Positions 17,366-58,342 of a DNA stretch of 64,000 nt are shown here, piece after piece. The stretch is from contig DAOVXQ010000004.1 in assembly GCA_030636025.1 (NCBI GenBank), forward strand, positions 6,685 to 70,684, written 5' to 3'. The notes below the pieces were generated by a model. The model did no database searches. It was given only the letters and a program-made list of their open reading frames with translations, and was not told where the DNA came from. The DNA comes from an archaeon (GTDB lineage: Archaea > Nanobdellota > Nanobdellia > Pacearchaeales > GW2011-AR1). Within the stretch, counting starts at the first letter, position 1. Each line of letters begins with the position of its first letter. A program made the position numbers and the translations under genes.

Positions 17366-17453
17366 GTAGTGTAAATATTTTTTTTATTTTTCCAAGATTG
17401 TAAATGTTTTCGTAGGTTTTTTAAACTTGAGATTCGTGTTTACACTACAAAAA

Positions 17454-22616: not shown

Positions 22617-22650
22617 AAAAAAGAGTGTTTTAAATTTATAGAAAGAGAAA

Positions 22651-23691: not shown

Positions 23692-23693
23692 AA

Positions 23694-36728: not shown

Positions 36729-36769
36729 TTAATAACAAGTTTTTTATAGGGTTTTAAGTATTATTGTTT

Positions 36770-38092
36770 ATGAAACGTTCTTATAAAGCACCAGAACCAG
36801 GAGATAAAATTAAAGTTATTTTAGATAATAATAAGCAAGAAGAAGGTGTTTTGTTGGAAAGTCATGATAGAGGGGTTTTATTATTGAAATTAGATAATGG
36901 TTATAATATTGGTTTGAAAAAAGATGATATTGTGGAGATTAAGGTTATTGAGAGAGTTGTGGGTGTGAAAAATAATAATGAATTATCTGAAGATTCTAAA
37001 GAATTAAAAATGTCTGGTAAAAAACCAATAATTGATTTTATTATTGCTGGAGGGACAATTAGTTCAAGATTAGATCCTAAAACTGGCGGGGTTAAGGATT
37101 TGACTGATGCGAGCGAATTTTTTAAAACATATCCTGAAATTTATGAAAAAGCAGATATTAGGATTAAAAATCCGTTTATGAAATGGAGTGAAAATATGGA
37201 TTTTAAGGATTGGGCGAGAATTGCAAAAGAGGTTGGGAAAAGTTTAAATGATGATAATGTTAGTGGAGTGATTATTAGTCATGGGACTGATTTTTTACAT
37301 TATACTTCTGCTGCATTAAGTTTTATGTTGGGTAAGTTGAATAAACCTGTTGTTCTGACTTATTCTCAGAGAAGTAGTGATAGGGGAAGTAGTGATGCAA
37401 GATTGAATTTATTATGCAGTGCTGAAATGGCTTTAAGTGATGTTGCAGAGGTTATGCTGGTTGGGCATGCAACAGAGAATGATGATTATTGTTATGCATT
37501 GCAGGGTAATAAGGTCAGGAAAATGCATAGTTCAAAAAGAAATGCTTTTAGACCTATAAATTGTAAACCCTTTGCTAAGGTTTGGGCTGATGGTGGAAAA
37601 AGAATTGAGTTTTTGAGAAATGATTATAATAAGAGAAATAAAAATAAGATTGAAGTTGATAATGTTTTTGATGAGCGAGTTGCGTTGGTTAAATTTTATC
37701 CAGGTCAAAATCCAGATATTTTAGATTATTATAGAAAAAAAGGTTATAGGGGGCTGATTATTGAAATGAGTGGTTTAGGGCATGTTATTACCCAAGGTAA
37801 AAATAACTGGATTCCAAAATTAAAAGAAATAATTGGAAAAGGAATGTTTGTATATGCTGTTCCTCAGACACTTTATGGGAGAGTAGATTCTTATGTTTAT
37901 GAATCAGGTAGGAGATTAAAAGGGGCAGGGGTTGTTTATTTGAATGATATTTTACCTGAGACAGGCTTTGTTAAATTGGGGTGGATATTAGGGCATAAGG
38001 TCTGGAGAGGAAGTGTTGCAACTGCAAAGAAAATGAAAGAGAATATTTCTGGAGAGTTTAATGATAGATTGGGGAATGAGTTTTTGAATTAA
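36770..38092 (+). CDS. gatD: Glu-tRNA(Gln) amidotransferase subunit D
   Basis: LKLDNGYNIG, GGTISS, HGTD, QRSSDRGSSD, GLGH. Confidence 0.97.
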   Translation: MKRSYKAPEPGDKIKVILDNNKQEEGVLLESHDRGVLLLKLDNGYNIGLKKDDIVEIKVIERVVGVKNNNELSEDSKELKMSGKKPIIDFIIAGGTISSRLDPKTGGVKDLTDASEFFKTYPEIYEKADIRIKNPFMKWSENMDFKDWARIAKEVGKSLNDDNVSGVIISHGTDFLHYTSAALSFMLGKLNKPVVLTYSQRSSDRGSSDARLNLLCSAEMALSDVAEVMLVGHATENDDYCYALQGNKVRKMHSSKRNAFRPINCKPFAKVWADGGKRIEFLRNDYNKRNKNKIEVDNVFDERVALVKFYPGQNPDILDYYRKKGYRGLIIEMSGLGHVITQGKNNWIPKLKEIIGKGMFVYAVPQTLYGRVDSYVYESGRRLKGAGVVYLNDILPETGFVKLGWILGHKVWRGSVATAKKMKENISGEFNDRLGNEFLN

Positions 38093-39559: not shown

Positions 39560-39997
39560 AATGAAAAAATTTAATTATAAAAAAGCACATGAGAGAGAAT
39601 TTAGGGAAGCAAAACTTAATCCTAAAGATTTTACGATTACTAATGAATTTTTTGGATTAAAAGTAAATGAAGATTTAAAATGGGTAAATGGAATAAATTC
39701 TAACACACCTAAATCGAAAAAAGTTTCTGGATTAGAAAAAATTTTTAGGGATGCAAATGATAAAATGGTAAAACTTGTTTGCACTATTTATTCTAATGGA
39801 ATTGATTCTTGTTCAGTTAAGGAATTAAAAGGAGTAGAATATGATCTTTCAAAAATTTATGAAAAATTAATAAATCATCATGATAAATATAAATCCTTAG
39901 TTAAAGACACTAATCCTGATTTTGAACAATCTGCAATGTTGATTTATAATATATTTGATAGAATAAATAAAAATATAAAAGGAGATAATTAAAATGA
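39547..39997. repeat. junction duplication ggaggataaataaaatga (39547-39564) / ggagataattaaaatga (39981-39997)
   Basis: SD + stop + A + ATG reproduced on both sides of the orphan. Confidence 0.7.
39561..39992 (+). CDS. orphan hypothetical protein inserted in the operon
   Basis: ATG 39561 after GGAGG; A-rich codon usage unlike its neighbours. Confidence 0.7.
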   Translation: MKKFNYKKAHEREFREAKLNPKDFTITNEFFGLKVNEDLKWVNGINSNTPKSKKVSGLEKIFRDANDKMVKLVCTIYSNGIDSCSVKELKGVEYDLSKIYEKLINHHDKYKSLVKDTNPDFEQSAMLIYNIFDRINKNIKGDN

Positions 39998-42063: not shown

Positions 42064-42185
42064 ATCATATTCAATAAATTACAAATTAACAAACAAAAAC
42101 CGCAAACCAAAATATAGAAACAACAGATAACAAGTAACAACTTATAGAAACTATCTAGAAACACGAAAAATTAATTGCGGAATAT

Positions 42186-42320
42186 GTGAAATACCCTATT
42201 GATGTATTTTACTTTGGTGAAAAAGAAGAAAATGTTTTTAGGTGGAACTATATGTTTTAAATTATTTTTAGTGAAATAAGTGAAATACCTTATTTAATCA
42301 TAAATCATTAGTGGAATACC
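42186..42320 (+). repeat. GTG(A/G)AATACC direct repeats at island left edge
   Basis: Copies at 42186, 42280, 42311; partial at 42271. Confidence 0.65.
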
Positions 42321-42368
42321 TTAAGTTTAGGATAAACTTGTTTTAGAAAAAATGAAAGGAAGTGTGTT

Positions 42369-42605
42369 ATGAGTATTTTTAGTGGTAAAGAACTGAGAAT
42401 AATGAAAGAGGTTTTAAAGCCTAATCAAAAACTAGTGAAAGGCACGCCCTATTGTGTAGGAGAATTGAGATATATTTTCCTGAAGTTATGGGGTCAAATC
42501 ATTAGTAATCGAGAAATAAGAGTTAGAGATTCTAGTGAGGAATCAAATAAAATTTGGAAAGTCATCCACAAATTGAACGAACTTCAGGACGGACAGAAAA
42601 TCTAA
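42369..42605 (+). CDS. hypothetical protein
   Basis: ORF with AAAGGA SD. Confidence 0.6.
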   Translation: MSIFSGKELRIMKEVLKPNQKLVKGTPYCVGELRYIFLKLWGQIISNREIRVRDSSEESNKIWKVIHKLNELQDGQKI

Positions 42606-42665
42606 GGTGATTCAACAGTCGTAAACGAAAACTAATCAGTAGATTAGAGAATTAAGGAGATAATC

Positions 42666-42761
42666 GTGGGTTTGTTAGATAGGTTATGGATAATTCTTTG
42701 TTTCTTGTGGTTTTGGGAATTTCCTCCTTTTAGTAAAAAGAAGGATAAAAAAGAAAAGTGA
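42666..42761 (+). CDS. 31-aa hydrophobic peptide MGLLDRLWIILCFLWFWEFPPFSKKKDKKEK
   Basis: AGGAG SD, GTG start; hydrophobic helix plus basic tail. Confidence 0.45.
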   Translation: MGLLDRLWIILCFLWFWEFPPFSKKKDKKEK

Positions 42762-42772
42762 AGAAGGAGATT

Positions 42773-42832
42773 ATGATGGATAAAAAAATATGGTGGTTGG
42801 CGTTGTTTACTTATTTAGCAGCTATGTGTTAG
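42773..42832 (+). CDS. 19-aa hydrophobic peptide MMDKKIWWLALFTYLAAMC
   Basis: AAGGAG SD; followed by a hairpin. Confidence 0.35.
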   Translation: MMDKKIWWLALFTYLAAMC

Positions 42833-42842
42833 TTGTTATAAA

Positions 42843-42907
42843 CCCCTTTCTTGAGATTTAGGCTGAACGCTTAATTTATAGTTATTAGGCCTGAATCTTT
42901 TTTGGGG
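42843..42907 (+). terminator. long imperfect stem-loop
   Basis: agatttaggc/gcctgaatct with outer cccc/gggg. Confidence 0.55.
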
Positions 42908-42957
42908 ATGCTAAATTAATGTTTTGAAAAACGAATGAAAGGAAAGGTGTTAATATT

Positions 42958-43323
42958 ATGAGTAAAATATGGGCGAACAAATGTGAAGTTTGTGGGGGCT
43001 TGTTTGAGGACGACTATGAATACAATAAACATGTAAGGGTTCATGAACTATTAAAAAATCTTGAAGAAGAGTTCCCTCGAGGGGATTTTAACCGGAGTAA
43101 TTTTATCCAGAGGGATAAAGAATGGCTTGAAAGGTATAAAAAGGCTGTTCAGGAAATAATCGGAAGGACTGGATTTCCTCCCTTTACTGGCGGGTGGTAT
43201 CGGTGTTTAAAGAATAGTGGGAACCAATTTTGCGATATTGCTTATAGAATATTAAATGTTTGCGAAACATGTTTTAAGGAATGGGCTCGCCAGGCCGATG
43301 TGGCTATGTGTTCGCATTCTTGA
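42958..43323 (+). CDS. C2H2-type zinc finger protein
   Basis: CEVC-x12-HVRVH plus a second CxxC. Confidence 0.7.
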   Translation: MSKIWANKCEVCGGLFEDDYEYNKHVRVHELLKNLEEEFPRGDFNRSNFIQRDKEWLERYKKAVQEIIGRTGFPPFTGGWYRCLKNSGNQFCDIAYRILNVCETCFKEWARQADVAMCSHS

Positions 43324-43433
43324 ACCTCTGGAGAAATTAGGAAAGGAGTTATCGGTTAATATTAGTGAAGATGTTCTTCAGATATGGAAAATTTTAATGA
43401 GTGGAAATTAATACAAGCGAAAGGAGTATTTTT

Positions 43434-43754
43434 ATGCAAAAAGGATTTGTCTTATTTATGTTTTGGACACAAGAAAAATATGACTTTCTTGTGGAGTTTA
43501 TGGAACACCTAAAAATGGATTGGAGAGAGGAGTTTGGTGAGTTGGATGCTTGGGACCCTGAGCTAAAAAGATATTTGACTTATTGGTTCAATGCAGAGTT
43601 TGGGTCAAATATCTCCTCCAATGCGATTTGCAACCGCCTTAGAAAATACCTCTCCCAAAAGAATGGGAAAAAGAAAGGACAAGCCTCTGAGGCAGGTATA
43701 AACGGTAGAGTTCATTCACCAAGAACTAGCGAATTTAAATTAAGTCGGCTTTGA
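43434..43754 (+). CDS. putative helical DNA-binding (Myb/HTH-like) protein
   Basis: AAGGAG SD before ATG 43434; WTQEKYDFL...FNAEFG...AICNRL pattern. Confidence 0.55.
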   Translation: MQKGFVLFMFWTQEKYDFLVEFMEHLKMDWREEFGELDAWDPELKRYLTYWFNAEFGSNISSNAICNRLRKYLSQKNGKKKGQASEAGINGRVHSPRTSEFKLSRL

Positions 43755-43763
43755 AATCTGTAA

Positions 43764-43961
43764 GTGAATGGATTTTCTGATGGGGTTGTTAATTTGCATG
43801 ACTTTAGTATGATGTCGTCGCATTGGGGGGCACACGCAACAGACCCTAATAGTAATTATGATGCCTATTTTGAGAACCCAAATAATCTTAATGGCATTAT
43901 TGATGTTTCAGACTTCTACGATTTTTCAAATAAATGGTTAACAGACCCAAATGGTGTGTAA
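43764..43961 (+). CDS. dockerin type I / EF-hand-like repeat peptide (possibly a fragment)
   Basis: Duplicated DGVVNLHDFSMMSSHW / NGIIDVSDFYDFSNKWL. Confidence 0.65.
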   Translation: MNGFSDGVVNLHDFSMMSSHWGAHATDPNSNYDAYFENPNNLNGIIDVSDFYDFSNKWLTDPNGV

Positions 43962-44000
43962 CTTGTTAATTATGTTTCTGGAGCGAAGTTAAATGAGGTG

Positions 44001-44048
44001 AAAGAGCTAAGTGAAAACTTTTAGTGAGTAGCTTAGCTCTTTATTTTG
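44001..44048 (+). terminator. intrinsic terminator-like hairpin
   Basis: aaagagctaag/cttagctcttt then T-rich tail. Confidence 0.65.
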
Positions 44049-44195
44049 TTTATTGGTAATTTAAAAATTAGTTAGAAAAAGAAAGGAGTTTGTTGTCTGA
44101 AAACTATTCATAGTATTTTTAATCGTGTTCTTGGGACATTTAATGTTAATTTTAGTTCTCTACGAGAAGAACTATATTTTTATGAAAGGATTTTT

Positions 44196-44402
44196 ATGGT
44201 TATAAAAACAGTATTTGGAACATTGGGATTATGTTTCCCTATTTTAGTGAGTATAATCCTCTCGCTAAAATATCCTCCTGCAGAAGGGAGATTTTTGATT
44301 TATGGATTATGTGTGGTAATAGACATTGTAAGTTTGTGTTGGATTGTCCGTTTGTGGATACCGATATTTCGAAATATTGGCCTCCATCAAAGAAATCCGT
44401 AA
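44196..44402 (+). CDS. small 2-TM protein
   Basis: GAAAGGA SD; two hydrophobic helices. Confidence 0.6.
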   Translation: MVIKTVFGTLGLCFPILVSIILSLKYPPAEGRFLIYGLCVVIDIVSLCWIVRLWIPIFRNIGLHQRNP

Positions 44403-44567
44403 TTTTAATAAGGAGATAAATTGCGAAGAAATTTTGGGAGGTGTTGCTTTAACTGTGGCATTCTTAATTAGAATGATGTGTGTTTACATGATTTTGGGTT
44501 GAGAATGTAACAACCTCTAAGAATTGTGCGAGGAATTAACCTGATAAACCTTGACAAGGAGATTATT

Positions 44568-44741
44568 GTGTCAGAAAAAGCATGGGATAAATTGTTTGAA
44601 GAAGTTTCAAAGTCAGTTGAATATGGGAGTGCAGAAACCCCTGAAGCTCTGACAAATGTTGCAAGAAATCGCAGACTGTCGCTGGAAGAAACCAATGAAC
44701 TTCAGAGGCGCTACGAGGAGTTTTGCGTCGAAAGTTGTTAA
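44568..44741 (+). CDS. small acidic hypothetical protein
   Basis: AAGGAG SD before GTG 44568 (in frame with ORF 44526). Confidence 0.55.
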   Translation: MSEKAWDKLFEEVSKSVEYGSAETPEALTNVARNRRLSLEETNELQRRYEEFCVESC

Positions 44742-44798
44742 GCAAAACACTAATTTTGTAGAATAGTGTTGTAACAAACATTAAATGGAAGGAGGATT

Positions 44799-45011
44799 AT
44801 GTCAGAAGAAGAATTAAGAGAGCGTTTAATAAAATTAATTAAAAATACTTACACCCCATCTGAGAAAGGAGAGATTCCTGACGAAATGTTTGTGAGTCCA
44901 ATAGGCGAGGTAATTGATTTTTTGAGCTTGAGGATAGGATTTCAAGGATTTGAAGTCGAATCTTTGACAAGAGAAAAGGGTTACCTTGCTACCTTGTTGA
45001 AAAAAGATTGA
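44799..45011 (+). CDS. small protein with coiled-coil C-terminus (IDFLSLRI..QGFEVESLTREKGYL)
   Basis: AAGGAGG SD. Confidence 0.65.
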   Translation: MSEEELRERLIKLIKNTYTPSEKGEIPDEMFVSPIGEVIDFLSLRIGFQGFEVESLTREKGYLATLLKKD

Positions 45012-45137
45012 GTTTTATTATTAGCGAAAGGATAGATATGAAAAATACCATCAAGATAACGCCAGAGACTATCCCTCGAGGGCTTAGGTTTAATTGGGGG
45101 TTTGTTTTAAGTACGGTTTTATTGCGAAAGGTATATC

Positions 45138-45398
45138 ATGAAGAAAAGACTTTGTTTTGGTGTAAAAAAGAATGGTGAAAAATGTGATCTTTTTGGTATT
45201 CTTCAGGAGGTTCAAAAATCAACTAAAAACTGTCCGCGTTGCGGGGCTTCATTATATTTTTTACCTCCTGAGAATGTTACGAAAAAGAAGCGGAAAGAAG
45301 CTATGGGGAAGCTGCCAAAAACAAATAAGAACACATGGCAGAACCGAAGAGTAAAAGAGGGGGGATGTAAACAAAGTTATGTGAATGGTCGCCGTTAA
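45138..45398 (+). CDS. zinc-ribbon protein
   Basis: CFGVKKNGEKC...CPRCG. Confidence 0.6.
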   Translation: MKKRLCFGVKKNGEKCDLFGILQEVQKSTKNCPRCGASLYFLPPENVTKKKRKEAMGKLPKTNKNTWQNRRVKEGGCKQSYVNGRR

Positions 45399-45485
45399 CT
45401 CTCGGCGCGATTGGAGGAGAAAAGAGATTTTGTATAAGATTAAATGTATGAGATTTTGAAACTTATTTTTTGAAAGGTGAAAATT

Positions 45486-48400
45486 ATGAAAAAGAATTTG
45501 AAAGTGATGTTGACTATTTTGTTTGTGACAATTTTACCGGCGACCTTATTTGCGGCACCGAGCGGAGACTATTGTTTTAATATCGGCGACCGCCCGATTC
45601 GAGATATTCAGGGTGATTACTCTGATATTGTTCTCTCAGGGAGTACGAATCTTGAACATTTGTCCCTTTTTCAAAATGAACATGGGATAATTACTGGAGA
45701 AGGTTATGGGACTAAGGGACCTCTTGGGATAAAAACCAAAATTCCTGTGGGTTTTATATATTCATTGCTGAACCAACGGATGGCAGGGATGATAAATATA
45801 TTCACTTTTACTAAAGCATCTAATGGGTGCCCCTTGGGGGTTTTGACCTATCGTGGATATGCCCAGGAAGACCATTTGATTGGTTTGTTTAAGGGGATTA
45901 TAGATAATACCTTGTATGGCTTAACGACGAAAATAGATTTCAGTCATTTAATTAATACGACTGATTGGCAGATTCATTTGTCGAATATGAGAACTGTTGG
46001 CGGTCGAATTACTGGCTCGGCGAAAATAAAACTATCCAGTGGAAGAGAATCTGACTTTAAGGTCATTGGATTTCATAGTGACTGGACAGGACATTCCACT
46101 TTTTTATTGATAGGCACTGCCACAGATGATTCTGAAATCGCTGGTTTGCTTATTTTTGATTTGAATTGCCGAACAAAGAAAATTACATGGATTGTTGGAC
46201 GAATTTTCGGAACAACGGTTTTTAATCTCAGTGCAAATTATGTGTCTGCGAAGCCGATTGATGAACTTGGGATAACCATTGAAACATTTGACGACAATAT
46301 TTTTGTCAACGAAGAAGTTACATTCGATGCTGTTGTTCCAAACGAAAACCAAGAATATTTTGATGGGTTGCAGGTTGCTTGGGACTTCAACAGCGACGGC
46401 GTGTTGGAAGTTCAGCCGACCCTTGACAAATTTTCTTGTTATGCTTTTGAAGAGCCGGGCGTTTATACTGTCACACTATTAATCTTTGGTGAAAATGGAG
46501 ATTGCCATGAATTAACCAAAGAAATAAGAGTAAAGTCAATTGATAGACTCGAGACCACCTTGGAGATTTCTAATTATAATCCCTTTGTCGGCGAGGAAGG
46601 TGGATTTGAGGCCGTGGTCCCAGACGAGAACGCAGATTATTTTGATGGATTGCAGGTGGCATGGGATTTCAACAGCGACGGTGTGTTGGAAGTCCAGCCG
46701 ACTTTCGAAAAGTCTGCCAGTTATGCATTCGAAGAGCCTGGTGTTTATTTAGTTAAACTGTTAATCTTTGATGGAACGGGATTTCATTATGAAATAATCA
46801 AAGAGATTACAGTTGAATCTGAAGCATTGGACTTGCCGGAACTGAAAACTGTCGACGGTTCTACTACGATTTTCGTAGACGAAAATTTGACGGTTCGGAC
46901 TCTTGCCGGGACTTCTGAAGTGGATAATTCAGGCAGGTTTGAAAATTTGGTGATGTTAAACACGGGGAACGGGCAGGTTATTTTCGTTGAGAATGGTGAG
47001 ACTCCTCTTGGGGTTGCTTATATTACTTCAGAACAAGTTGCCTCGGGAATTGTGCAAATAACCTCTCGCGAATTGGCGTTGGGATTGATAAGTTTAAATC
47101 CTTATATTACGGTTTTGTCTCCTCAGAACCGCTCCATGGTTCTTGAAGCATCTGCGAATCATTATGAATTTGCATTATTAAAAGATGATGTCAAGAACTC
47201 GATTATCAATGCGCCGGAGTTGGCTCTTGATTACGAGACCTATCCGTATATTTTTCAAACTTCCACGAAGATAGGTATAGAGACGATTATGAGTTTGGAT
47301 GGCTCGGGGTCTCTTGCAAGATCTTATGCCGGTGTTGGAGAAATAACAGATACTGAAGCAACGAATGTGATGCGACGATTAAGTCCTGTTGCGATTAGTT
47401 CTGTTAGCCAGATGGTTGGCGAGGAAGATTGTCCGCATATCATAGATAAAGCCGGTCCCGAGATTACCTTGGTAAACCCCTTGATGAGCTTTTACGGTTT
47501 TCAGGCAAATGAAAACAGTAATCTTGTCAGAGGAAGAAGTAAGGTATTTAATTTCTTTCCTCCGTGGAGGTTTGGAAGAACTGCACCGTGTGAAAAAGAT
47601 TGGAATCTTGGTGACGGTGTGTTTGACATAACCATTTACAGTGGTTTTAATATCGGCACCGAGGGTTGGTTGGACTACAGGCATTCTGCAGGAAAAGCAA
47701 CTTATGCGAACCTCGCTAAGGTGATTTTCATTTGCCTGGATATTGGTGGCATGGATTTTATGTCGCTTGATAATTCCGTGATAGAAAATCTATTGTTACT
47801 TGATAATGTGCCAAACATCGACCTCGGCAATATCGCCACGAAATTTAAGGAAAAGGGTTGGCAGTATGTTTTGTTACATACTATGCCGGAATTTCTCAGA
47901 AACCATTGGGATGAAATTTCCTATTGGCTGTGGCAAGACGGTGCGACAGGGCTTGCAGAAGGTATGCAAGATGTATCGAGGTATTTTAAGCATACTGCAA
48001 AAGCTATGGAAGGAGTAATGAATGCTCTTCCCGTGGTCGGGATTATTCTTGACTCTGGTGAGATGCTAAACGAATGGATACCTTTCCTCGCTGATTTGGC
48101 TACTGGTCCAAGAATATTACAGTATCGTGTTGAACAAGAAGATGGTGTGCTTTATGAGCTGGCTACGCCTTATATACCTCCGACTGCAAAAATTCGTTTA
48201 GAAAACTATAATCCGTTTGTCGGTGAAGAAGTGATATTTGATGCAAGATTGTGTTACGACGATTGTGATCGTCGTGAAGATTTGCAGGTTCGGTGGGATT
48301 TTGACGGCGATGGAGTATGGGATACGGGTTGGAGCAATGGCAAGATTGCGAATTATACTATGAATCAAAGAGGCAATTTCAGGACCCGACTTGAAGTCAG

Positions 48401-48848
48401 GGATTTGGACGGTCTTGTTGGTTCAGAGACTTGCAGTCTTGTTGTAGGATCTATCGAAAGTTTTAAAATCGTTTTGACCTGGGGACAGAATCCCCGGGAC
48501 CTTGACTCTCATTTGTATACTCCTGTTATTGACGGTTCTTCCCATCATGTCTGGTATAGTTCAAAAGGAAGTGCAATTTCACTTCCTTATGTGTGGTTGG
48601 ACTTAGATGATGTTTCGAGTTATGGCCCTGAAACAATTTGGTTCGAGAGGTTTTTCTCTGGGGAATACAAGTATTCGGTTTACCAGTATTCTTCTGACGG
48701 GGCATTGGCAACATCTGGCGCACATGTCGAAATAATTAGTGCCGGAAGATTAATCGCTTCCTTCGATGTTCCGACAGACTTGTCTGGGCGGACCTGGGAA
48801 GTTTTCACAATTAACGGGGGGACAAAAACTATCACTCCGATTAATTAA
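45486..48848 (+). CDS. secreted multidomain protein: signal peptide, PKD domains, C-terminal YfaP/DUF2135-like domain
   Basis: Sec signal (...ATLFA-A); WDFNSDG x2, WDFDGDG; IVLTWGQNPRDLDSHL...DDVSSYGPETI. Confidence 0.88.
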   Translation: MKKNLKVMLTILFVTILPATLFAAPSGDYCFNIGDRPIRDIQGDYSDIVLSGSTNLEHLSLFQNEHGIITGEGYGTKGPLGIKTKIPVGFIYSLLNQRMAGMINIFTFTKASNGCPLGVLTYRGYAQEDHLIGLFKGIIDNTLYGLTTKIDFSHLINTTDWQIHLSNMRTVGGRITGSAKIKLSSGRESDFKVIGFHSDWTGHSTFLLIGTATDDSEIAGLLIFDLNCRTKKITWIVGRIFGTTVFNLSANYVSAKPIDELGITIETFDDNIFVNEEVTFDAVVPNENQEYFDGLQVAWDFNSDGVLEVQPTLDKFSCYAFEEPGVYTVTLLIFGENGDCHELTKEIRVKSIDRLETTLEISNYNPFVGEEGGFEAVVPDENADYFDGLQVAWDFNSDGVLEVQPTFEKSASYAFEEPGVYLVKLLIFDGTGFHYEIIKEITVESEALDLPELKTVDGSTTIFVDENLTVRTLAGTSEVDNSGRFENLVMLNTGNGQVIFVENGETPLGVAYITSEQVASGIVQITSRELALGLISLNPYITVLSPQNRSMVLEASANHYEFALLKDDVKNSIINAPELALDYETYPYIFQTSTKIGIETIMSLDGSGSLARSYAGVGEITDTEATNVMRRLSPVAISSVSQMVGEEDCPHIIDKAGPEITLVNPLMSFYGFQANENSNLVRGRSKVFNFFPPWRFGRTAPCEKDWNLGDGVFDITIYSGFNIGTEGWLDYRHSAGKATYANLAKVIFICLDIGGMDFMSLDNSVIENLLLLDNVPNIDLGNIATKFKEKGWQYVLLHTMPEFLRNHWDEISYWLWQDGATGLAEGMQDVSRYFKHTAKAMEGVMNALPVVGIILDSGEMLNEWIPFLADLATGPRILQYRVEQEDGVLYELATPYIPPTAKIRLENYNPFVGEEVIFDARLCYDDCDRREDLQVRWDFDGDGVWDTGWSNGKIANYTMNQRGNFRTRLEVRDLDGLVGSETCSLVVGSIESFKIVLTWGQNPRDLDSHLYTPVIDGSSHHVWYSSKGSAISLPYVWLDLDDVSSYGPETIWFERFFSGEYKYSVYQYSSDGALATSGAHVEIISAGRLIASFDVPTDLSGRTWEVFTINGGTKTITPIN

Positions 48849-48858
48849 TGATTTAGTT

Positions 48859-48906
48859 AGAAGTCAGCTGATAGACTTGTTGTTTGTTGGCTGACTTCTC
48901 TTTTTT
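48859..48906 (+). terminator. intrinsic terminator
   Basis: agaagtcagc/gctgacttct stem followed by T6. Confidence 0.8.
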
Positions 48907-48926
48907 GAAATTGAAGGAGCATTATT

Positions 48927-49226
48927 TTGAGAAAAAAATTGTTAGAGGATTTTAAGTTGTCCTTAGAAAGTCAAAAATTTTCTGAGGATTATGTTGAAAA
49001 ATGTATGTTGGAGGTTAAATTGTTTTTAGAATTTTGCGGGGATTCTGAAAACATTATTAATATTAATCCTGCGGCGATAGAACAATATGCGGTTTATCTT
49101 GACGAAACCCAAAATTTTATGGCGGTTTGTAGAGCGATTGTTAGTGTGAAATCGTTTTACGATTTTTTGTATTCGAAAGGAGGAATTTCAGAACATCCTT
49201 TTGAAAGGGTCTTTAAAGAAGTATAA
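48927..49226 (+). CDS. stand-alone tyrosine-recombinase N-terminal (SAM-like core-binding) domain
   Basis: F...L.....S......V..FL.F ... IEQY..YL ... RAIVSVKSFYDFL......HP pattern of XerC/D N-termini; no catalytic domain. Confidence 0.7.
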   Translation: MRKKLLEDFKLSLESQKFSEDYVEKCMLEVKLFLEFCGDSENIININPAAIEQYAVYLDETQNFMAVCRAIVSVKSFYDFLYSKGGISEHPFERVFKEV

Positions 49227-49284
49227 TTTTAGTCGTTATTATGTAGGTTAATTTTTGGTTAAATTTCATTTTTAGGAGATTGTT

Positions 49285-49959
49285 ATGAAAAATTTTGTTA
49301 TGATTATGATTGTTGTTTTGTGTTTGGTAAATATGGGTTTTGCCGAGGGGGTTGAGGTAGAATCCTATTTAAAACTGGGAACTCTTGATTCCATGGAAAA
49401 GGATCGTTCATCTGCCTGTGCCCACAAGCTCATGGTCTGGATAGGGCTTAATTTTGTTTTTGGAGGTGAAACTCCTTTAAAGGCAATGATTAATGCTGAG
49501 ATGTGGACGATGGCAGAGCCAGTTGACCGGGATTTTGGGGTTCCTCATGATGGAATGATTCTTTCTGGGAGATTGAGTCATGATTTCAAATTGACCGAGG
49601 ATATTTTGATTTATCCTTTTGCCAGTGTCGGTTTTGAAAACTGGAGAAGGAATTCACCTGATGATGGAAATCAGGATGAATTTTATGGAGATTTGTGTTT
49701 CTTTAGTTTTAGTTTCGGAAACGGTTTGAAATACAAAAACTGGTATGCGGAAGCAGAAGGTTTTTTGCCGTTTTGGACTAAGACTGATAGCGGACAGAAA
49801 CCTGACGGCGAATGGGGGGGTGGTTTAAATGTCGGATATATTTTTGATGAATATGTCCGATGTGGGATGTTTTACACCCAAAAAAGTTTCGGAGGAGACG
49901 GAACCCAGACTGATTTTAAACTCAGCCAGTATGGGTTTTTTGTTGGTTATACTTTCTGA
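49285..49959 (+). CDS. outer-membrane beta-barrel-like protein
   Basis: Signal peptide, alternating amphipathic strands (YPFASVG, GLNVGYIF), C-terminal YGFFVGYTF ending in Phe. Confidence 0.8.
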   Translation: MKNFVMIMIVVLCLVNMGFAEGVEVESYLKLGTLDSMEKDRSSACAHKLMVWIGLNFVFGGETPLKAMINAEMWTMAEPVDRDFGVPHDGMILSGRLSHDFKLTEDILIYPFASVGFENWRRNSPDDGNQDEFYGDLCFFSFSFGNGLKYKNWYAEAEGFLPFWTKTDSGQKPDGEWGGGLNVGYIFDEYVRCGMFYTQKSFGGDGTQTDFKLSQYGFFVGYTF

Positions 49960-49997
49960 CATCTGTCGGGAGGTTTAAATTAGTTGGATAAATTATT

Positions 49998-50048
49998 GAG
50001 AGCCAGAAAATAGATTCCAAATGGATAATCTAAAATCTGGCTCTCTTT
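49998..50048 (+). terminator. stem-loop after the beta-barrel gene
   Basis: gagagccaga/tctggctctc with inner tagatt/aatcta. Confidence 0.7.
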
Positions 50049-50075
50049 GAATTAAGAAAATATTAAATTTCTCTA

Positions 50076-50404
50076 ACTCTCGCGAAAGGGGGTGATGCCT
50101 ATGATTGTTAAATCCTTAGGCGTGTGTTATTAATACTTTTACACTCAGATGACTAACTAGTCAGAAAGGAGTAACCGTGAAAAAATTAGTAATTGTTAAG
50201 AACAACAAAACGAAGAAAAGCAAGAGATGATTCAAGAAAGAACGGAGTCATCTTAAAAATGAAGCCACGAAAAAGGAGATCTTTAATTAGTGTCATAATT
50301 AGGATCTCGGGTAAAAATTTTATGGTGGGATGAAGAAATTCTGTCGAATAGAATTAGGAGAGTTAGGGTCATAAGATGAAAGTCTACCTAACTCTCCCAC
50401 CCAC
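50076..50404 (+). ncRNA. candidate large structured RNA (at least 7 stem-loops)
   Basis: Seven stems plus a closing helix (listed under findings); G-U pairs favour the + strand; no ORF over 17 aa with SD. Confidence 0.5.
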
Positions 50405-50482
50405 ATTTATTTGATTTAGAACTTTTATTTTTTTTGCAAATTTTTTGATTTGAACATATTTTTTTTGCAAAATTACTGAAAA

Positions 50483-50731
50483 TTAGTAGATATTTTTTCT
50501 AAGTCCTATTTTTATGACACTGATTATTAATTTATTTTCTATTATTTGATAAATTATTCTATAATTTTTAATTCTTAATCTAAATAGTCCTGTTAGTTTT
50601 CCGATTAGTGGTTTTCCAATCTGTGGGTTTTGTTTTAGTTCTAAGATTTTTTTAAGAATTTTATTTCTTTCAAATTTGTCAATTTTTTTAAGAAATATTT
50701 CTGCTTTTTTTTGAAAATATAATTTATACAT
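50483..50731 (-). CDS. RelE/ParE family toxin
   Basis: GKPLIGKLTGLFRLRIKNYRIIY...IGLRKNIY. Confidence 0.92.
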   Translation of the reverse strand: MYKLYFQKKAEIFLKKIDKFERNKILKKILELKQNPQIGKPLIGKLTGLFRLRIKNYRIIYQIIENKLIISVIKIGLRKNIY

Positions 50732-51002
50732 CTTGATTGTCTAATTCTTTTTTTAAATCTTCAAAACTTATACCATAATTTCCTTTTTCAATTTCTTCAA
50801 GAGATTCTGCAATGTCCCGCATTGTTTCAGGGTCTGACAGGACTTCAATAGTTTCAATTAGGTTTTCTCTATCTGTATCTGCAGGGTTTGTTTTTTGAAT
50901 AACTCTTTCTAATAATTCGTTGTAAGTTTCTCTATGATGAATTTTTAATGAATCTAATTTTGATTTTACTTTTGTGTCTAACTGAATTGTGGTTATTGCC
51001 AT
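50724..51002 (-). CDS. antitoxin (RHH-like N-terminus, RelB-like C-terminus)
   Basis: TTIQL..KLDSLK..RETYNE; ETIEVLSD; overlaps the toxin start. Confidence 0.85.
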   Translation of the reverse strand: MAITTIQLDTKVKSKLDSLKIHHRETYNELLERVIQKTNPADTDRENLIETIEVLSDPETMRDIAESLEEIEKGNYGISFEDLKKELDNQDV

Positions 51003-51017
51003 TTTTTTGTTCTTGCT

Positions 51018-51050
51018 CTATAGTTAACCATAGTTTAATATAGTTTATAA
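51018..51050. promoter_or_regulatory. ATAGTT direct repeats over the TA promoter (probable autoregulatory operator)
   Basis: ctatagtt-aaccatagtt-taatatagtt-tataaa. Confidence 0.5.
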
Positions 51051-51104
51051 AAGTTTTGGGTTGGGTTGTATATTTAGATAAAGTTTTATTAAGTAATTTA
51101 TTCT

Positions 51105-52532
51105 ATGTTATTTATGGAGAAAATAAAATCAGGGATAGAAATTCATCAGCAACTTGATACGCATAAATTGTTTTGTAGTTGTCCTTGTGTTTTGAGAAAA
51201 GATGAGCCGGATTTTGTTGTGCAGAGGAGATTGCATGCTGTTGCCGGGGAGGGTGGAGAGATTGATGTTGCTGCTAAGTTTGAAGCAGAACAGGAAAAAG
51301 AATTTATTTATCAAGGTTATGATACAACTTGTTTGGTTGAGATTGATGAAGAACCGCCTCATGAAATTAATCAGGATGCATTGGAAACTGTTTTGCATAT
51401 TGCTTTGCTTTTGAATTGCGAGATTTTGCCTATTAGTCAGATTATGAGAAAGACTGTTGTGGATGGTTCGAATACTTCTGGTTTTCAGAGGACGGTTTTG
51501 ATTGCTCGGAAGGGTTATGTTGAAACTGAATCTGGAAAAGTTAGAATTGATAATATTTCTTTAGAGGAGGATTCTGCGAGGAAGATAAAAATAGAGAAGG
51601 GCAGGACTATTTTTAGGTTGGATAGGTTGGGGATTCCTTTGGTTGAGATTGGAACTGCACCAGATATTACAAGTCCTGAACAGGCGAAGGAAGTTGCTTT
51701 GCATATTGGGGATGTTTTAAGGAGCTGCAAGGTTAAGCGAGGGATTGGAACGATTAGGCAGGATGTGAATGTTTCTATTGAGGGGCATCCTCGTGTTGAG
51801 ATTAAAGGTTTTCAGGATATTAAAATGTTTATTCCAACTATTGAAAAAGAAGTCGAGAGGCAGGAAAAAAATTTAGTTGGAAAAAAAGATTTGAGAGGCG
51901 AGGTTAGAAATGCTTTGCCGGATGGAAGCAGTGAATTTTTGAGACCTATTCCTGGGTCTGCGAGAATGTATCCTGAAACAGATTTGCCTTTGCTGAAAAT
52001 TTCAAGGCAAATGATTAATAATGCTAAAGCAAGTTTGCCGAAGTTAAGAAGAGAGATAGAAAAAGATTTGGAGAAGAAAGGGCTTTCAGAGGATTTGATT
52101 AAATTATTAATTCGCAGTGGGAGGTTGGATAGTTTTGAGAATTTGTTGAAGGTTGTTAATGAGCCGAATTTTATTTTTAAGGTACTGGTTGAAATTCCAA
52201 AAGAGATTGGGTCGCATGATGGAATTAAGAATATCGACGGTGTTTTAAATTTGGATATTGTTGAGAGTATTGTTTCTGCTGTTAAAGAAAATAAAATAGA
52301 AAAAGGAGATGTTAAACATGTTATGGAAGAGATTGTTAAAGGGAAAAGTTTTGCAGATGCGATTGAAATTGAGAAAATTGATTTAGGGGATGTTGAAAAA
52401 GAGATTGCGAAGTTGGTTAAAGCAAAACCAGGGTTGAGTGTTGGAGGATATATGGGCTTGGTGATGCAGAATTTTAAAGGAAAAGTTAGTGGGAAAGAGG
52501 TTAGTGAGATACTTAGAAAGTTGATTAAATAA
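51105..52532 (+). CDS. gatE: Glu-tRNA(Gln) amidotransferase subunit E (short, no AspRS-like insert)
   Basis: GIEIHQQL, DGSNTSGFQRT, LDRLGIPLVEI, RMYPETD; 475 aa. Confidence 0.96.
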   Translation: MLFMEKIKSGIEIHQQLDTHKLFCSCPCVLRKDEPDFVVQRRLHAVAGEGGEIDVAAKFEAEQEKEFIYQGYDTTCLVEIDEEPPHEINQDALETVLHIALLLNCEILPISQIMRKTVVDGSNTSGFQRTVLIARKGYVETESGKVRIDNISLEEDSARKIKIEKGRTIFRLDRLGIPLVEIGTAPDITSPEQAKEVALHIGDVLRSCKVKRGIGTIRQDVNVSIEGHPRVEIKGFQDIKMFIPTIEKEVERQEKNLVGKKDLRGEVRNALPDGSSEFLRPIPGSARMYPETDLPLLKISRQMINNAKASLPKLRREIEKDLEKKGLSEDLIKLLIRSGRLDSFENLLKVVNEPNFIFKVLVEIPKEIGSHDGIKNIDGVLNLDIVESIVSAVKENKIEKGDVKHVMEEIVKGKSFADAIEIEKIDLGDVEKEIAKLVKAKPGLSVGGYMGLVMQNFKGKVSGKEVSEILRKLIK

Positions 52533-53065
52533 ACTTATAAACAATTAAAATCTGAAATTTTAATGGGAATGAATTTAATTGAAAAAGTTGATAAGGCAAT
52601 ATTAAAAAATGCTGAATTGAATTTTAAGATAATTAGTGAGGTTCCTGATTTTAAAACTTTTATTAAGAATTATGAAGAGAGTATTTGTAAATTATATGGA
52701 AGAAATGTTGGGCATGAATATTCTGATGGAGTCTGGAGACAGAATGGAAAATTGTTTATTCCTTATCAATTGTTTTTTTCAGAGGGAAATGAAGAAGAAA
52801 TTTTAAACTCTGATTGTGTTTATATTCCTAAAGAAGTTGTTGATAAACTTTCATGTAATTTGGAAATTAAAGATAATGTAAAAATTATAGATGAACAAGG
52901 ACATCCAACTGCATTAGATATATTTGTAAATTATAAATGCTCTAAGGAATTAGATTTTTATATTGCAGTTAATTATCCGAAAGATAAAAAAAGAGGGGCA
53001 AATCAAAATAGAAAAAGGGAAGTTACTACAGGTCCACTTGAGGTTTAATTAAATAAACTTATAAA
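52524..53065. repeat. 18-bp direct repeat attaaataaacttataaa (52524-52541, 53048-53065)
   Basis: Covers gatE last codons, stop and TATA; brackets the orphan gene. Confidence 0.8.
52563..53048 (+). CDS. orphan hypothetical protein
   Basis: ORF track. Confidence 0.7.
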   Translation: MGMNLIEKVDKAILKNAELNFKIISEVPDFKTFIKNYEESICKLYGRNVGHEYSDGVWRQNGKLFIPYQLFFSEGNEEEILNSDCVYIPKEVVDKLSCNLEIKDNVKIIDEQGHPTALDIFVNYKCSKELDFYIAVNYPKDKKRGANQNRKREVTTGPLEV

Positions 53066-53086
53066 TACTGAATTCTGAGTAGGATT

Positions 53087-54361
53087 ATGATAAGGACATA
53101 TATTAAAGATGGGTTTAAGAAAAAAGGCAAGGTAGAATTAAAGGGGTGGGTGCATGATATTCGTGATTTAAGTAAAATTAAGTTTCTTATTTTAAAGGAT
53201 ATTAGTGGAAGAATCCAGTGTATTGTACTGCCTAAAGAATCTGGTGAAGAGATTTTTAAACAGGTTTCTAAAATAAATAGGGAGAGTGTTGTCAGGGTTG
53301 TTGGAGAGTTGCAGGATAGTAAACAGGCGATTGGGGGAAAAGAACTTTTGATTAAAGAATTAGAAGTAATTTCTGAAGCAGAACAGCCATTGCCAATTGA
53401 TGTTTCAGACCATTCTAAAACAGAGTTGCCTAAAAGATTGGATTATCGGTTTTTAGATTTGCACAGGCCTAAATCTCAGGCGATTTTTAAAATTGAATCT
53501 ACAATGATGCAGGCATATAGAGAATTTATGATTAAGGAAGGCGGGATTGAAGCTGTTTTTCCTTCTATAATTGGAAGTTCAAGTGAAGGTGGAACAGAAT
53601 TATTTCCTTTGAAGTATTTTGAGAAAAAAGCATTTTTATCTCAGAGCTGTCAGTTATATAAGCAGATGTTAGCTTGTTCAATGGAAAAAGTATTTACTAT
53701 TTTTTGTGTTTGGAGAGCAGAGAAGCATAATACTGTTCGGCATTTGAATGAAGCAAGACAGTTAGATTATGAGGAATGTTTTGCAGATGAGTTTAAGGTT
53801 ATGGATGTTTTGGCGAGGTGTGTTCAGTATATTGTTAAGAAGATTATGGATGAGAGGGGGGAGGAATTAGAATTGCTTGATGTTAAATTAAAAGTTCCTG
53901 ATGTTAAATATATGACTTTTGCTGATTGCACTAAATTAATGAAAAAAGAAAAAGTTCATATGGGAAAAGATGATTTATCTACTGAAGCTGAAAAGCGGTT
54001 GGGGGAGTTATATCCTGATACAATTGTGTTTGTTCATGACTGGCCCCTCGCTGGTAAGCCGTTTTATATTATGCCTAAAGGAGATGGATTAAGTGGGGGT
54101 TTTGATGCTATTTATAATGGTGTTGAGATTTCATCTGGTGGGCAGAGGGTTCATATTCCTGATTTATTAATTAAGAGATTAAAAGAAAAAGGTTTGAATC
54201 CTAAGGATTTTAAGGGTTATATTGATAGTTTTAGATATGGAGCCCCAGAGCATGCGGGGTGGGGTGTGGGATTAGAGAGGTTGATGACTCAAATTTTAGG
54301 TATTGCAAATATACGAGAGGTCACTTTGTTTCCTCGGGATAGGGATAGGTTAGGGCCTTAG
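53087..54361 (+). CDS. aspS: aspartyl-tRNA synthetase, archaeal type (probably non-discriminating)
   Basis: GWVH, RFLDL, LSQSxQLYKQ, EISSGGQR, GLER, LFPRD. Confidence 0.97.
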   Translation: MIRTYIKDGFKKKGKVELKGWVHDIRDLSKIKFLILKDISGRIQCIVLPKESGEEIFKQVSKINRESVVRVVGELQDSKQAIGGKELLIKELEVISEAEQPLPIDVSDHSKTELPKRLDYRFLDLHRPKSQAIFKIESTMMQAYREFMIKEGGIEAVFPSIIGSSSEGGTELFPLKYFEKKAFLSQSCQLYKQMLACSMEKVFTIFCVWRAEKHNTVRHLNEARQLDYEECFADEFKVMDVLARCVQYIVKKIMDERGEELELLDVKLKVPDVKYMTFADCTKLMKKEKVHMGKDDLSTEAEKRLGELYPDTIVFVHDWPLAGKPFYIMPKGDGLSGGFDAIYNGVEISSGGQRVHIPDLLIKRLKEKGLNPKDFKGYIDSFRYGAPEHAGWGVGLERLMTQILGIANIREVTLFPRDRDRLGP

Positions 54362-56841: not shown

Positions 56842-57029
56842 ATGTTGAGGGAATAATGAATAGATATGGTTTAGGGGTAGAGATTGCAAGAGTTTTGGTA
56901 GAGTCTTATGGGGTTTCGGGTAACCCTCGGGAATATGGATTTTATAGACAGAAAATGTTTGATGCAGGGCTTACGACTTGTGGTTTGGAAAATGCTTTAA
57001 ATTGTTTGGATGTTATATTTAAAAAATGA
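56838..57029 (+). CDS. orphan small protein between gatC and gatA
   Basis: ATGA overlaps at both ends. Confidence 0.6.
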   Translation: MNVEGIMNRYGLGVEIARVLVESYGVSGNPREYGFYRQKMFDAGLTTCGLENALNCLDVIFKK

Positions 57030-58342
57030 TGCGAGAAAAAGTTAGAAATATAAGGTTAGGTAAACTAACAGCAGAGCAGAACATTAGGAATTTTATTTTA
57101 AAAATTAAGAAAAATAATAAAAAGATAAATGCGGTTTTGCATTTGAATCCTGATGCGATTGAAGAAGCTAAACAAGTTGATAAGATGAAGAAGAAAGGAA
57201 AGTTGGCTGGAATTGGGGTTGTTGTTAAATCTAATATTAATGTTAATGGATTAATTGCTAATTGTGCTTCAAAGACTCTTGAGGATTATAAGTCAAGTTA
57301 TGATGCTACTGTTATTAAAAAATTAAAAGATGAAGGGGCTGTAATTTTAGGTATGGCAAATATGGATGAGTTTGCTTCTGGTTCAAGTGGAGAGAGTTCT
57401 GCTTTTGGTGTTTGCAAAAATCCTTCTGCCTTAGATAGAATTCCGGGTGGCTCTTCTTCAGGAAGTGCTGCTTCAGTGGCTGCTGATTTTTGCGATTTTA
57501 GTTTGGGCAGTGATACTGGTGGAAGTATAAGAAATCCTGCTTCGCATTGCAGTGTTGTTGGAATGAAACCTTCTTATGGGGCTGTTTCGAGATATGGATT
57601 AATTGATTTAAGTATGAGTTTAGACCAAATTGGACCCTTAGGTAAAAGTGTTGAAGATATAGAATTAGTTTATAATGTTATTAATGGGTTTGATGAAAAT
57701 GATGGGGTGAGTAGAAATTTTTCATCAGAGAAAATGAAAAAGAGTTTGAAAATCGGTGTTCCTTTTGTGAATGCAGATGAACAAATTTGGGATATAATTA
57801 AGATTAAGATTCAGGAAGTTTGTGATGGGCAGGGTTGGAAAGCAGATGATATTGAATTAAAACATATTGATTTGGGAATTCAAACTTATTATCCTATAAA
57901 TTATGTTGAATTTTTTTCAGGAACAAGAAGGTTTGATGGAAGAAAATATGGTAAAAAGATTGAGGAAAGTTGTGGTGAAGAAGTTTTAAGAAGAATTTTG
58001 GGTGGGCAGGAGATAAGTCAGGCAGAATTTGCAGGCAAGTATTATAGAAGAGCTTTGATTGCTAAAAAAATTATTGAAAAAGAGTTTGTAGAGGCATTTA
58101 AGAAATATGATTGCATTATTATGCCAACTGTTCCAAAACTGCCTCATAAAATTGGGGAGAAAATAAGTGTGGAAGATAGTTATGATTATGATACTTTAAC
58201 TGTTCTTGCTAATTTAGCAGAGATTCCTGCAATAAGTATTCCTGTAGGAGATGTTGGAGGAGTGCCGGTGGGTATTCAGATTTTATGTGCTCGCGGGAAT
58301 GATGATTTTATGCTGAATATCGCGAAGGTGTTTGAGAAATAA
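57026..58342 (+). CDS. gatA: Asp/Glu-tRNA amidotransferase subunit A
   Basis: Amidase signature PGGSSSGS...GSDTGGSIRNPA. Confidence 0.96.
   Translation: MMREKVRNIRLGKLTAEQNIRNFILKIKKNNKKINAVLHLNPDAIEEAKQVDKMKKKGKLAGIGVVVKSNINVNGLIANCASKTLEDYKSSYDATVIKKLKDEGAVILGMANMDEFASGSSGESSAFGVCKNPSALDRIPGGSSSGSAASVAADFCDFSLGSDTGGSIRNPASHCSVVGMKPSYGAVSRYGLIDLSMSLDQIGPLGKSVEDIELVYNVINGFDENDGVSRNFSSEKMKKSLKIGVPFVNADEQIWDIIKIKIQEVCDGQGWKADDIELKHIDLGIQTYYPINYVEFFSGTRRFDGRKYGKKIEESCGEEVLRRILGGQEISQAEFAGKYYRRALIAKKIIEKEFVEAFKKYDCIIMPTVPKLPHKIGEKISVEDSYDYDTLTVLANLAEIPAISIPVGDVGGVPVGIQILCARGNDDFMLNIAKVFEK

Follow-up and report, generated by a model that had tools for sequence, protein, structure and literature searches.

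The barrel gene and its predicted product

We analyzed a 64,000-nucleotide stretch of DNA from a small archaeon (the window, C14:6685-70684) with respect to one gene at 49285..49959 (forward strand, stop codon included), whose 224-residue product is predicted from a structural model to be an exported, 10-stranded beta-barrel of the type found in bacterial outer membranes. Starting at an ATG, the open reading frame (ORF) runs through 224 codons with no internal stop, and a Shine-Dalgarno (SD)-like AGGAG lies at 49274..49278 (forward strand), 6 nt before the start codon, bearing out the intact, SD-led frame that an earlier reading of the letters (the sequence-only reading) had described. The 3' end of the genome's 16S rRNA reads ...GATCACCTCCT and contains the anti-SD CCTCC, and comparably strong SD motifs precede 26 of the 520 long ORFs of the genome, with 5 in a control window. 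On the 3' side of the stop codon, an inverted repeat at 49998..50045 (forward strand) combines a 10-bp GC-rich stem and an inner stem with a following TTTG, and the 121-nt stretch around it (49955-50075) folds at -36.5 kcal/mol (z = -4.69, with none of 200 shuffles equally stable). The terminator that had been proposed for the gene stands only in part, as a stable hairpin with its TTTG that a simple terminator scan did not flag.

Evaluating the two ends of the protein, we found features expected of an exported outer-membrane protein (OMP). The first 60 nucleotides (49285..49344, forward strand) would encode a Sec signal peptide of residues 1-20, MKNFVMIMIVVLCLVNMGFA, a hydrophobic leader in which a short charged segment precedes the hydrophobic core and small residues stand ahead of E21, such that cleavage would fall after ...GFA. 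Its best 10-residue hydropathy window reaches 3.55, the AlphaFold2 model places residues 2-16 in a helix outside the barrel, and across the family alignment the leader region is variable while a conserved motif opens the mature part. The signal peptide noted earlier is therefore also what we predict, from hydropathy and small residues. At the other end, the protein closes with ...QYGFFVGYTF, placing F, Y, V, F and Y at positions -1, -3, -5, -7 and -9. The beta-signal of OMPs consists of a C-terminal aromatic residue with hydrophobic residues at alternate positions before it, and measured against this consensus the sequence carries a putative C-terminal beta-signal. The terminal YGFFVGYTF is present as the sequence-only reading gave it. 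Of 42 family members in the alignment, 32 likewise end in F, while 4 end in L and 4 in I. A crude screen of the genome for ORFs with both a signal peptide and an OMP-like C-terminus returned four candidates, of which the barrel ORF alone was convincing.

Building the AlphaFold2 model with an alignment of 42 relatives, we obtained a mean predicted local distance difference test score (pLDDT) of 92.6 and a predicted TM-score (pTM) of 0.85, with ten strands of 12-16 residues each. The connections between strands are 7, 10, 13, 7 and 8 residues long on one side and 5, 7, 2 and 3 on the other, an asymmetry of loops and turns that is usual in OMPs, and in the modelled protein the longer loops would face outward. 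The prediction is thus of a closed antiparallel barrel with an even number of strands of membrane length. A Foldseek search against the PDB gave 151 matches at E<=0.001, the best 44 of which were without exception barrels of bacterial outer membranes or their engineered or modelled counterparts, with OpcA at the top (1k24, E 1.5e-10, TM 0.66). VIA, a structure search independent of Foldseek (48,161 chains), likewise ranked OpcA first (2vdf_A, Z 20.7, root-mean-square deviation 2.5, 191 residues), with further matches to pOmpT (Z 18.7), Legionella Dot/Icm porin I (Z 18.6) and a designed 10-strand membrane barrel (Z 16.6). Soluble 10-stranded barrels reached at most Z 14.3 over at most 149 aligned residues, versus 191-195 residues at Z 18.6-20.7 for the membrane barrels. 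The structure searches agree on the outer-membrane-type barrel that had been suggested, and the soluble fold named at that time as its counter-case was not borne out, scoring lower.

The strands themselves are amphipathic, as the sequence-only reading had proposed. Assigning faces across the 10 predicted strands from sequence register rather than coordinates, we found a mean hydropathy of 1.11 with 4 of 71 residues charged on one face versus -0.77 with 18 of 67 charged on the other, a contrast matched by only 44 of 2000 within-strand shuffles, so that residues alternate between lipid-facing and lumen positions.

No curated family model was matched above its cut-off. The barrel ORF matched no Pfam family at E<=0.01, scoring 10 bits against OMP_b-brl (PF13505; cut-off 28.7), and weak matches to that model occurred in 12 of the 42 family members at E<=1 (best 1.8e-6) and to the Autotransporter beta-domain (PF03797) in 8 of 42 (best 2.5e-5). 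A six-frame search of the genome with OMP_b-brl gave nothing at E<=1 and, since it missed the barrel gene itself, the model appears insensitive here. Searched against PDB chains, the family profile returned nothing at E<=10, and the nearest ESM-Atlas clusters were bacterial OMP_b-brl/DUF481/OmpG. We read the product, from its model, as a 10-stranded outer-membrane-type barrel of OpcA size that lies outside the OpcA family and probably outside the omptins.

Comparison with known systems is consistent with such a placement. The best structural match, the OpcA adhesin of Neisseria meningitidis (2vdf, 1k24; PF07239), is also a 10-stranded antiparallel outer-membrane barrel of similar size and shares 17% identity with the window protein. 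The long basic loops of OpcA bind proteoglycans, whereas the loops of the window protein are short (7-13 residues) and carry conserved acidic motifs. Membership of the OpcA family was considered and rejected, as PF07239 went unmatched by the window protein and matched one of 42 relatives at E 0.045. The omptins (pOmpT 7xw0, OmpT 1i78, Pla 2x55) and Legionella Dot/Icm porin I (9nh1) are likewise 10-stranded outer-membrane barrels, with pOmpT and the porin aligning over 192-195 residues at 9-11% identity (pOmpT 11%), but they are larger (256-297 residues), their barrels protrude far beyond the membrane, and they show no sequence-level match to the family. With the OMP_b-brl and Autotransporter beta-domain superfamily the family shares a signal peptide, amphipathic strands and a terminal aromatic residue; unlike that superfamily, it has no model of its own and some of its hosts have no Omp85.

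Host genome and carriers of the family

The genome holding the gene comprises 733,590 bases in 17 contigs and is estimated at 86.2% completeness with 0.24% contamination. Its small-subunit (1298.6 bits) and large-subunit rRNAs match the archaeal models best within their clans, and the window encodes TFIIE-alpha (TFE), GatD, TYW3, TrmB and an archaeal/eukaryotic-type ProRS. The host is thus archaeal, as had been supposed, and it is small (0.73 Mb) and DPANN-type. Searching for Omp85, the family of BamA and TamA, as the sequence-only reading had proposed, we found no match in this genome at E<=1 and, at E<=0.01, none in any of the genus's 49 genomes, and POTRA domains gave no match in the genome either, while control genomes gave the expected outcome for these searches. 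[quoted passage not shown]

The barrel family is rare and unnamed. Among 1.84 billion representative proteins, an exhaustive HMMER search returned 49 clusters at E<=0.001, of which 8 reach E<=1e-30; the 42-row alignment (A1) omits 12 of these 49 representative matches as short or partial (P0018, P0025, P0029, P0031, P0032, P0036, P0040, P0042, P0043, P0045, P0046 and P0050). Using the 13 closest rows to search a species-level genome collection, we located close relatives at six loci, in metagenome-assembled genomes (MAGs) titled Deltaproteobacteria (three), Desulfuromonadales (one), Candidatus Nealsonbacteria (one) and Candidatus Falkowbacteria (one). Five of these six carrier genomes were searched for Omp85; the three proteobacteria-like ones have it, and it was not found in the two Patescibacteria MAGs (G063 and G065, 0.5 and 0.9 Mb). 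Most carriers look like diderm sediment bacteria. This is a known kind of protein in an unexpected host, from a family shared with Patescibacteria that lack BamA.

The closest dated relatives of the window barrel lie on three metagenome contigs (L022-L024) at 50-51% identity and a guanine-plus-cytosine content (GC) of 0.40, where their neighbors are bacterial (Obg, RlmN, DnaB, MscS). The DnaB and Obg proteins of these contigs are 43-47% identical to those of two Deltaproteobacteria-titled MAGs (G061, G062), versus 30-31% for DnaB and fragmentary or no matches for Obg in Patescibacteria genomes. Profiling the family across wider genome sets, we found it in 2 of 49 genomes of the archaeon's own genus (G000, G022), none of 24 from elsewhere in its order, none of 400 others in its phylum, none of 400 others in the phylum to which the Nealsonbacteria MAG belongs, and, in the class of the Deltaproteobacteria-titled MAG G061, as 2 strong and 3 weak (E 1e-4 to 1e-3) matches among 251. 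As a separate observation on the carriers, a matrixin-type (Peptidase_M10) gene lies 1-4 kb from the barrel gene in three unrelated ones, the Nealsonbacteria MAG (L006:3670-4548), the second archaeon of the genus (G022; L015:4044-4706) and a bacterial metagenome contig (L023:4485-6698); the first and last of these proteins are 41.5% identical over 200 residues, and the window holds no such gene.

Acquisition and the strain-variable spot

To compare composition, we set the barrel gene, with a GC of 0.400 and a third-codon-position GC (GC3) of 0.369, against the 369 long ORFs of the genome, which average 0.317±0.038 and 0.239±0.060; only 1.1% of them reach its GC and 1.6% its GC3. As the gene lies in a variable spot as such an outlier, we take it to have arrived horizontally. 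At five bacterial loci (L003, L006, L007, L008, L023) the barrel genes keep a GC of 0.41-0.44 while the GC of the locus ranges over 0.356-0.538, and this constancy suggests that the family moves often, the genes having recently and repeatedly been transferred out of a pool near 40% GC.

The second copy in the genus belongs to a sister species (G022) and reads differently. Located at L015:2283-2954, it is 31% identical to the window protein and has a GC3 of 0.103 among neighbors at 0.12-0.17, on a 9.6-kb contig of GC 0.26 whose other genes match the genome under study at 52-66% identity (translated segments). Of the positions that are invariant in the subfamily it nevertheless preserves 17 of 20, and of the near-invariant ones 10 of 16, among them the AEPxDxD, RRNS, GDL and TD motifs, and we argue for retention because the sister species holds this divergent copy of native composition with the family motifs preserved. 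Its leader ends in a Cys-containing ...GSTGC stretch and its C-terminus, ...KLKP, is non-aromatic, such that this copy may be exported or anchored by another kind of signal; its 90% cluster has one further member, on another contig (P0055).

A third archaeal sequence comes from a sequencing run of a different study (X3), assembled in Logan, an assembly independent of the deposited one. Aligned with the window protein over 222 residues, this strain's copy shows 24 changes and a 2-residue gap (~89% identical), with only 6 of the 24 changes within residues 121-224; at the DNA level there are 115 differing letters and 12 gaps over 1153 bases, versus those 24 amino acid changes and one 2-residue gap. 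The sequence-only reading had offered a very recent arrival as one of two explanations for the intact frame, and this part fared unevenly, agreeing with the outlying composition but not with a strain at ~90% DNA identity nor with a sister copy that has diverged to 31% and taken on native composition.

To place these copies, we built a maximum-likelihood tree of 55 rows, all of at least 190 residues, after dropping three identical duplicates. The window protein and the X3 strain copy paired (100/100) among bacterial and Nealsonbacteria rows, the sister copy fell elsewhere on a long branch, and the archaeal rows formed a single clade in 0 of 200 bootstrap trees. Our conclusion is that one or two imports from bacteria brought the gene in and that it has since been retained for a while; with its patchy distribution, foreign composition, bacterial nearest relatives and strain replacement, it has the properties of a horizontally transferred accessory gene in a variable locus.

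The replacement is seen in the surroundings of the gene. Native flanks are formed on the left by GatD, the archaeal Glu-tRNA amidotransferase subunit (36764..38092, forward strand; Pfam GatD_N and Asparaginase), and on the right by a GatB/GatE-like gene, a 161-aa ORF and a short (424-aa) AspRS, all assigned by Pfam (51105..54361, forward strand). Upstream of the barrel gene lies a PKD-repeat secreted surface protein of 1123 residues (45477..48848, forward strand; PKD_4, 2.2e-16), whose gene is a further compositional outlier (GC 0.416, GC3 0.388, in the top 0.3-0.5% of genome ORFs) and is strain-specific, occurring in 1 of the 49 genomes of the genus and in none of the other 48. It is followed by a terminator-like hairpin with an 18-bp stem and a T-run (48859..48899, forward strand), just behind which the junction 48905-48915 marks the point where related strains differ. 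Next comes a 99-aa ORF (48927..49226, forward strand; GC 0.313) with a weak match to an N-terminal SAM-like integrase domain (PF02899, E 5.7e-4; its 20.5 bits fall below the cut-off of 22.3), after which the catalytic domain does not follow; this ORF is colinear with the barrel gene in an X3 contig. A ParE-type toxin gene (50483-50731, reverse strand; ParE_toxin 3.2e-12, GC 0.19) and a DUF7557 antitoxin-like gene (50724-51002, reverse strand; Pfam 4.2e-8, GC 0.29) together (50483..51002) form the right boundary of the variable spot.

Both Logan assemblies speak to the soundness of this arrangement. From the probable source run (X1), one contig (13,006 nt, depth 11.8) spans 40000-50708 and departs from it at only 1 position, starting at ~37,700 by record offset, inside GatD, and the next contig (2,768 nt, depth 12.6) abuts it and covers 50679-53446. 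From X3, a 4,926-nt contig that carries protein P0001 joins the end of the PKD gene to the barrel gene at about 86-90% identity (290 differing letters over 2,029 bases in one part, 115 over 1,153 in the other), while on a 3,745-nt contig the PKD gene is connected to ParE, the antitoxin gene and the beginning of the GatE-like one, with ~1 kb of other sequence in place of 48915-50482 (the integrase-like ORF and the barrel gene), and another X3 contig has 529 extra letters at 48905/48914. Because these X3 contigs differ there, we take the barrel segment to be a replaceable unit at a strain-variable junction, and the spot 48905-50482 behaves like an exchangeable cassette site. Even depth in an independent assembly, linkage in a second study and a second archaeal copy also dispose of the chimera that had been raised as a concern; the contig is not chimeric. 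Searches around the island found no convincing flanking direct repeats, Pfam found no intact integrase, and, as to a conserved partner gene, no window ORF from 38-53 kb except the barrel matched any of 15 related loci.

Further left, several observations stand on their own. The stretch 39122-43754 (GC 0.32-0.36) holds a HerA/FtsK-like ATPase (DUF87 and Zot; 39994-42063), several small ORFs and a C2H2 zinc-finger protein, and may be an integrated plasmid- or virus-like element. The following 1.7 kb (43755-45476), inside the island, has no ORF of at least 90 aa, only short ones, of which 43764-43961 encodes what we take to resemble a dockerin-type repeat fragment, and may hold decayed foreign genes. 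Depth of the X3 run is near zero across most of 42.3-45.1 kb (85% likeness).

Competing readings and other window content

A transmembrane beta-barrel is usually read as the mark of an outer membrane, bacterial or organellar, and of the Omp85 insertase. A barrel gene apparently retained without Omp85 could mean that small barrels fold in vivo without BAM, that archaea or Patescibacteria have an unrecognised outer lipid layer, or that the protein acts in another cell's membrane; the gene being sporadic, it may also be a mere tolerated import. The reading that we favor, at a probability of roughly 65%, is that this is a real and intact gene for a Sec-exported, 10-stranded transmembrane barrel from a rare bacterial family, acquired horizontally by a small DPANN-type archaeon. 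Its donor would have been a bacterium of ~40% GC, as on the contigs of the closest dated relatives, and it would have entered a cassette-like variable spot between the strain-specific PKD surface protein and the ParE toxin-antitoxin pair. Made from the SD-led start, the protein would leave the cytoplasm through the archaeal Sec system and be cut after ...GFA to a mature chain of 204 aa, which would then fold on its own, without BAM, into a lipid layer outside the cytoplasm, with the cell's own surface, shed vesicles and a partner cell as candidate membranes. Selection would keep the gene, as suggested by the intact copy in a ~10%-diverged strain, the ameliorated sister copy with its motifs and the copies in two BamA-less Patescibacteria MAGs.

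The predicted outer rim may give such a protein its use. Conserved polar positions concentrate in the longer loops (E78 and R122, both in 42 of 42 rows, D81, D83, T167/D168 and the DG(S/T)QTD stretch), and the rim motifs AEPxDxD, RRNSP, TDSG and DG(S/T)QTD all lie in these loops, which presumably face outward. Conserved outer loops are unusual among OMPs, and for this reason the pattern suggests a defined binding or gating site, the acidic rim perhaps serving as a small binding or pore unit. As to folding, PMC7383365 describes OMPs that fold spontaneously into reconstituted thin bilayers in vitro and notes that the 10-stranded OmpT folds at moderate yield into E. coli polar lipid.

Several points weigh against the favored reading. 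The same review, PMC7383365, holds spontaneous OMP folding without BAM to be kinetically unfavourable in native-like bilayers, and the barrel protein may for that reason never fold in the archaeal cell. The Omp85-negative host genome is only 86.2% complete, the bacterial carrier taxa are MAG titles in which binning errors are possible, and an approximately unbiased (AU) test does not reject a single archaeal clade (p 0.356), so that one and two acquisitions are not separable; nor does the tree discriminate among donors. Rarity in archaea (2 of 49; 0 of 400) fits a transient passenger equally as well as a selected accessory gene.

That passenger is the alternative we take most seriously, though we think it rather unlikely: a gene picked up recently with foreign DNA, intact for lack of time, whose product is dead on arrival because it misfolds or is degraded in a cell with neither BAM nor an outer membrane. 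Its outlying GC and GC3, its place in a variable spot beside the gene-poor 43.75-45.45 kb and a truncated integrase-like ORF, its rarity (2 of 49 within the genus, 0 of 400 elsewhere in the phylum) and the unfavourable BAM-less folding in native-like lipids (PMC7383365) speak for it. Against it, the gene is intact in two strains ~10% apart in DNA, with few amino acid changes, clustered in the N-terminal half, a sister species keeps it ameliorated with its motifs preserved, and two BamA-less Patescibacteria MAGs have intact copies. An assembly or binning artefact, in which a bacterial barrel gene was mis-joined to archaeal DNA, is very improbable; while the island is foreign in composition and the genome is a MAG of 17 contigs, an independent assembler spans 37.7-50.7 kb in one contig at even depth, the PKD-barrel and PKD-ParE-GatE-like joins recur in contigs of a different study, and another species in the genus carries a copy amid archaeal-type neighbors, with contamination put at 0.24%.

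The nature of the protein could also be otherwise. A soluble, secreted 10-stranded barrel, binding a ligand in the manner of nitrobindin/Rv2717c or of lipocalins and FABP, would accord with structural matches to Rv2717c (Z 14.3) and nitrobindins (Z 12.8-13.0), but we judge it improbable, as these alignments reach at most 149 residues at lower Z versus 191-195 for membrane barrels, the strands are 12-16 residues long with one hydrophobic face (4 of 71 charged), and the C-terminal aromatic pattern and weak hidden Markov model matches are of OMP type. Least credible of all is a native, vertically inherited archaeal envelope family that merely resembles bacterial OMPs. Presence in two species of the genus and an AU test that does not reject a single archaeal clade speak for it, set against which the gene is missing from 47 of 49 genomes in the genus and from 400 of 400 others in the phylum, the window copy is 50-51% identical to bacterial copies versus 31% to the other archaeal copy, the archaeal rows never formed one clade in 200 bootstrap trees, and the composition is foreign.

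Beyond the favored reading of an acquired and retained barrel, a bolder and doubtful proposal is that the family is BAM-independent and travels as a single-gene cassette between diderm bacteria and ultra-small symbionts (DPANN, Patescibacteria), acting as a self-inserting, cross-domain 'membrane hook' in a foreign or shed membrane (for example a neighboring bacterium's outer membrane or a host contact zone), with the acidic rim as attachment point or small pore. The second explanation of the sequence-only reading, a function in the membrane of a partner, is likewise speculative. PopA of Bdellovibrio is an OMP that is reported to insert into the membrane of a different cell (PMC12228718), and that paper also mentions a possible distant PopA relative in the DPANN Altiarchaeales; PopA, an oligomeric lipid-trapping bowl, shows no relation to the barrel family, and the Altiarchaeales are reported to have two membranes. 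Archaea reported as diderm are listed in PMC8871954. In the literature searched, no paper treats OMP-type barrels in Woese- or Pacearchaeota-type DPANN archaea, the sole mention being the Altiarchaeales remark (PMC12228718), and the word 'archaea' is absent from the main text of a large barrel database paper (PMC10629564).

Elsewhere in the window, we recorded a full GatB (33072-34457, reverse strand), GatD (36764-38092, forward strand), a short GatB/GatE-like protein (51105-52532, forward strand; 475 aa, with a weak Yqey domain) and a GatA-type amidase (57026-58342, forward strand). Because the window encodes GatB, GatD, GatE-like and GatA-type proteins, both tRNA amidotransferase systems seem present in a genome of 0.73 Mb. 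The region 16340-25510 encodes a DisA-type diadenylate cyclase, followed by a 1729-aa beta-helix/NosD surface protein and a MoxR-DUF58-VWA (BatA-like) operon.

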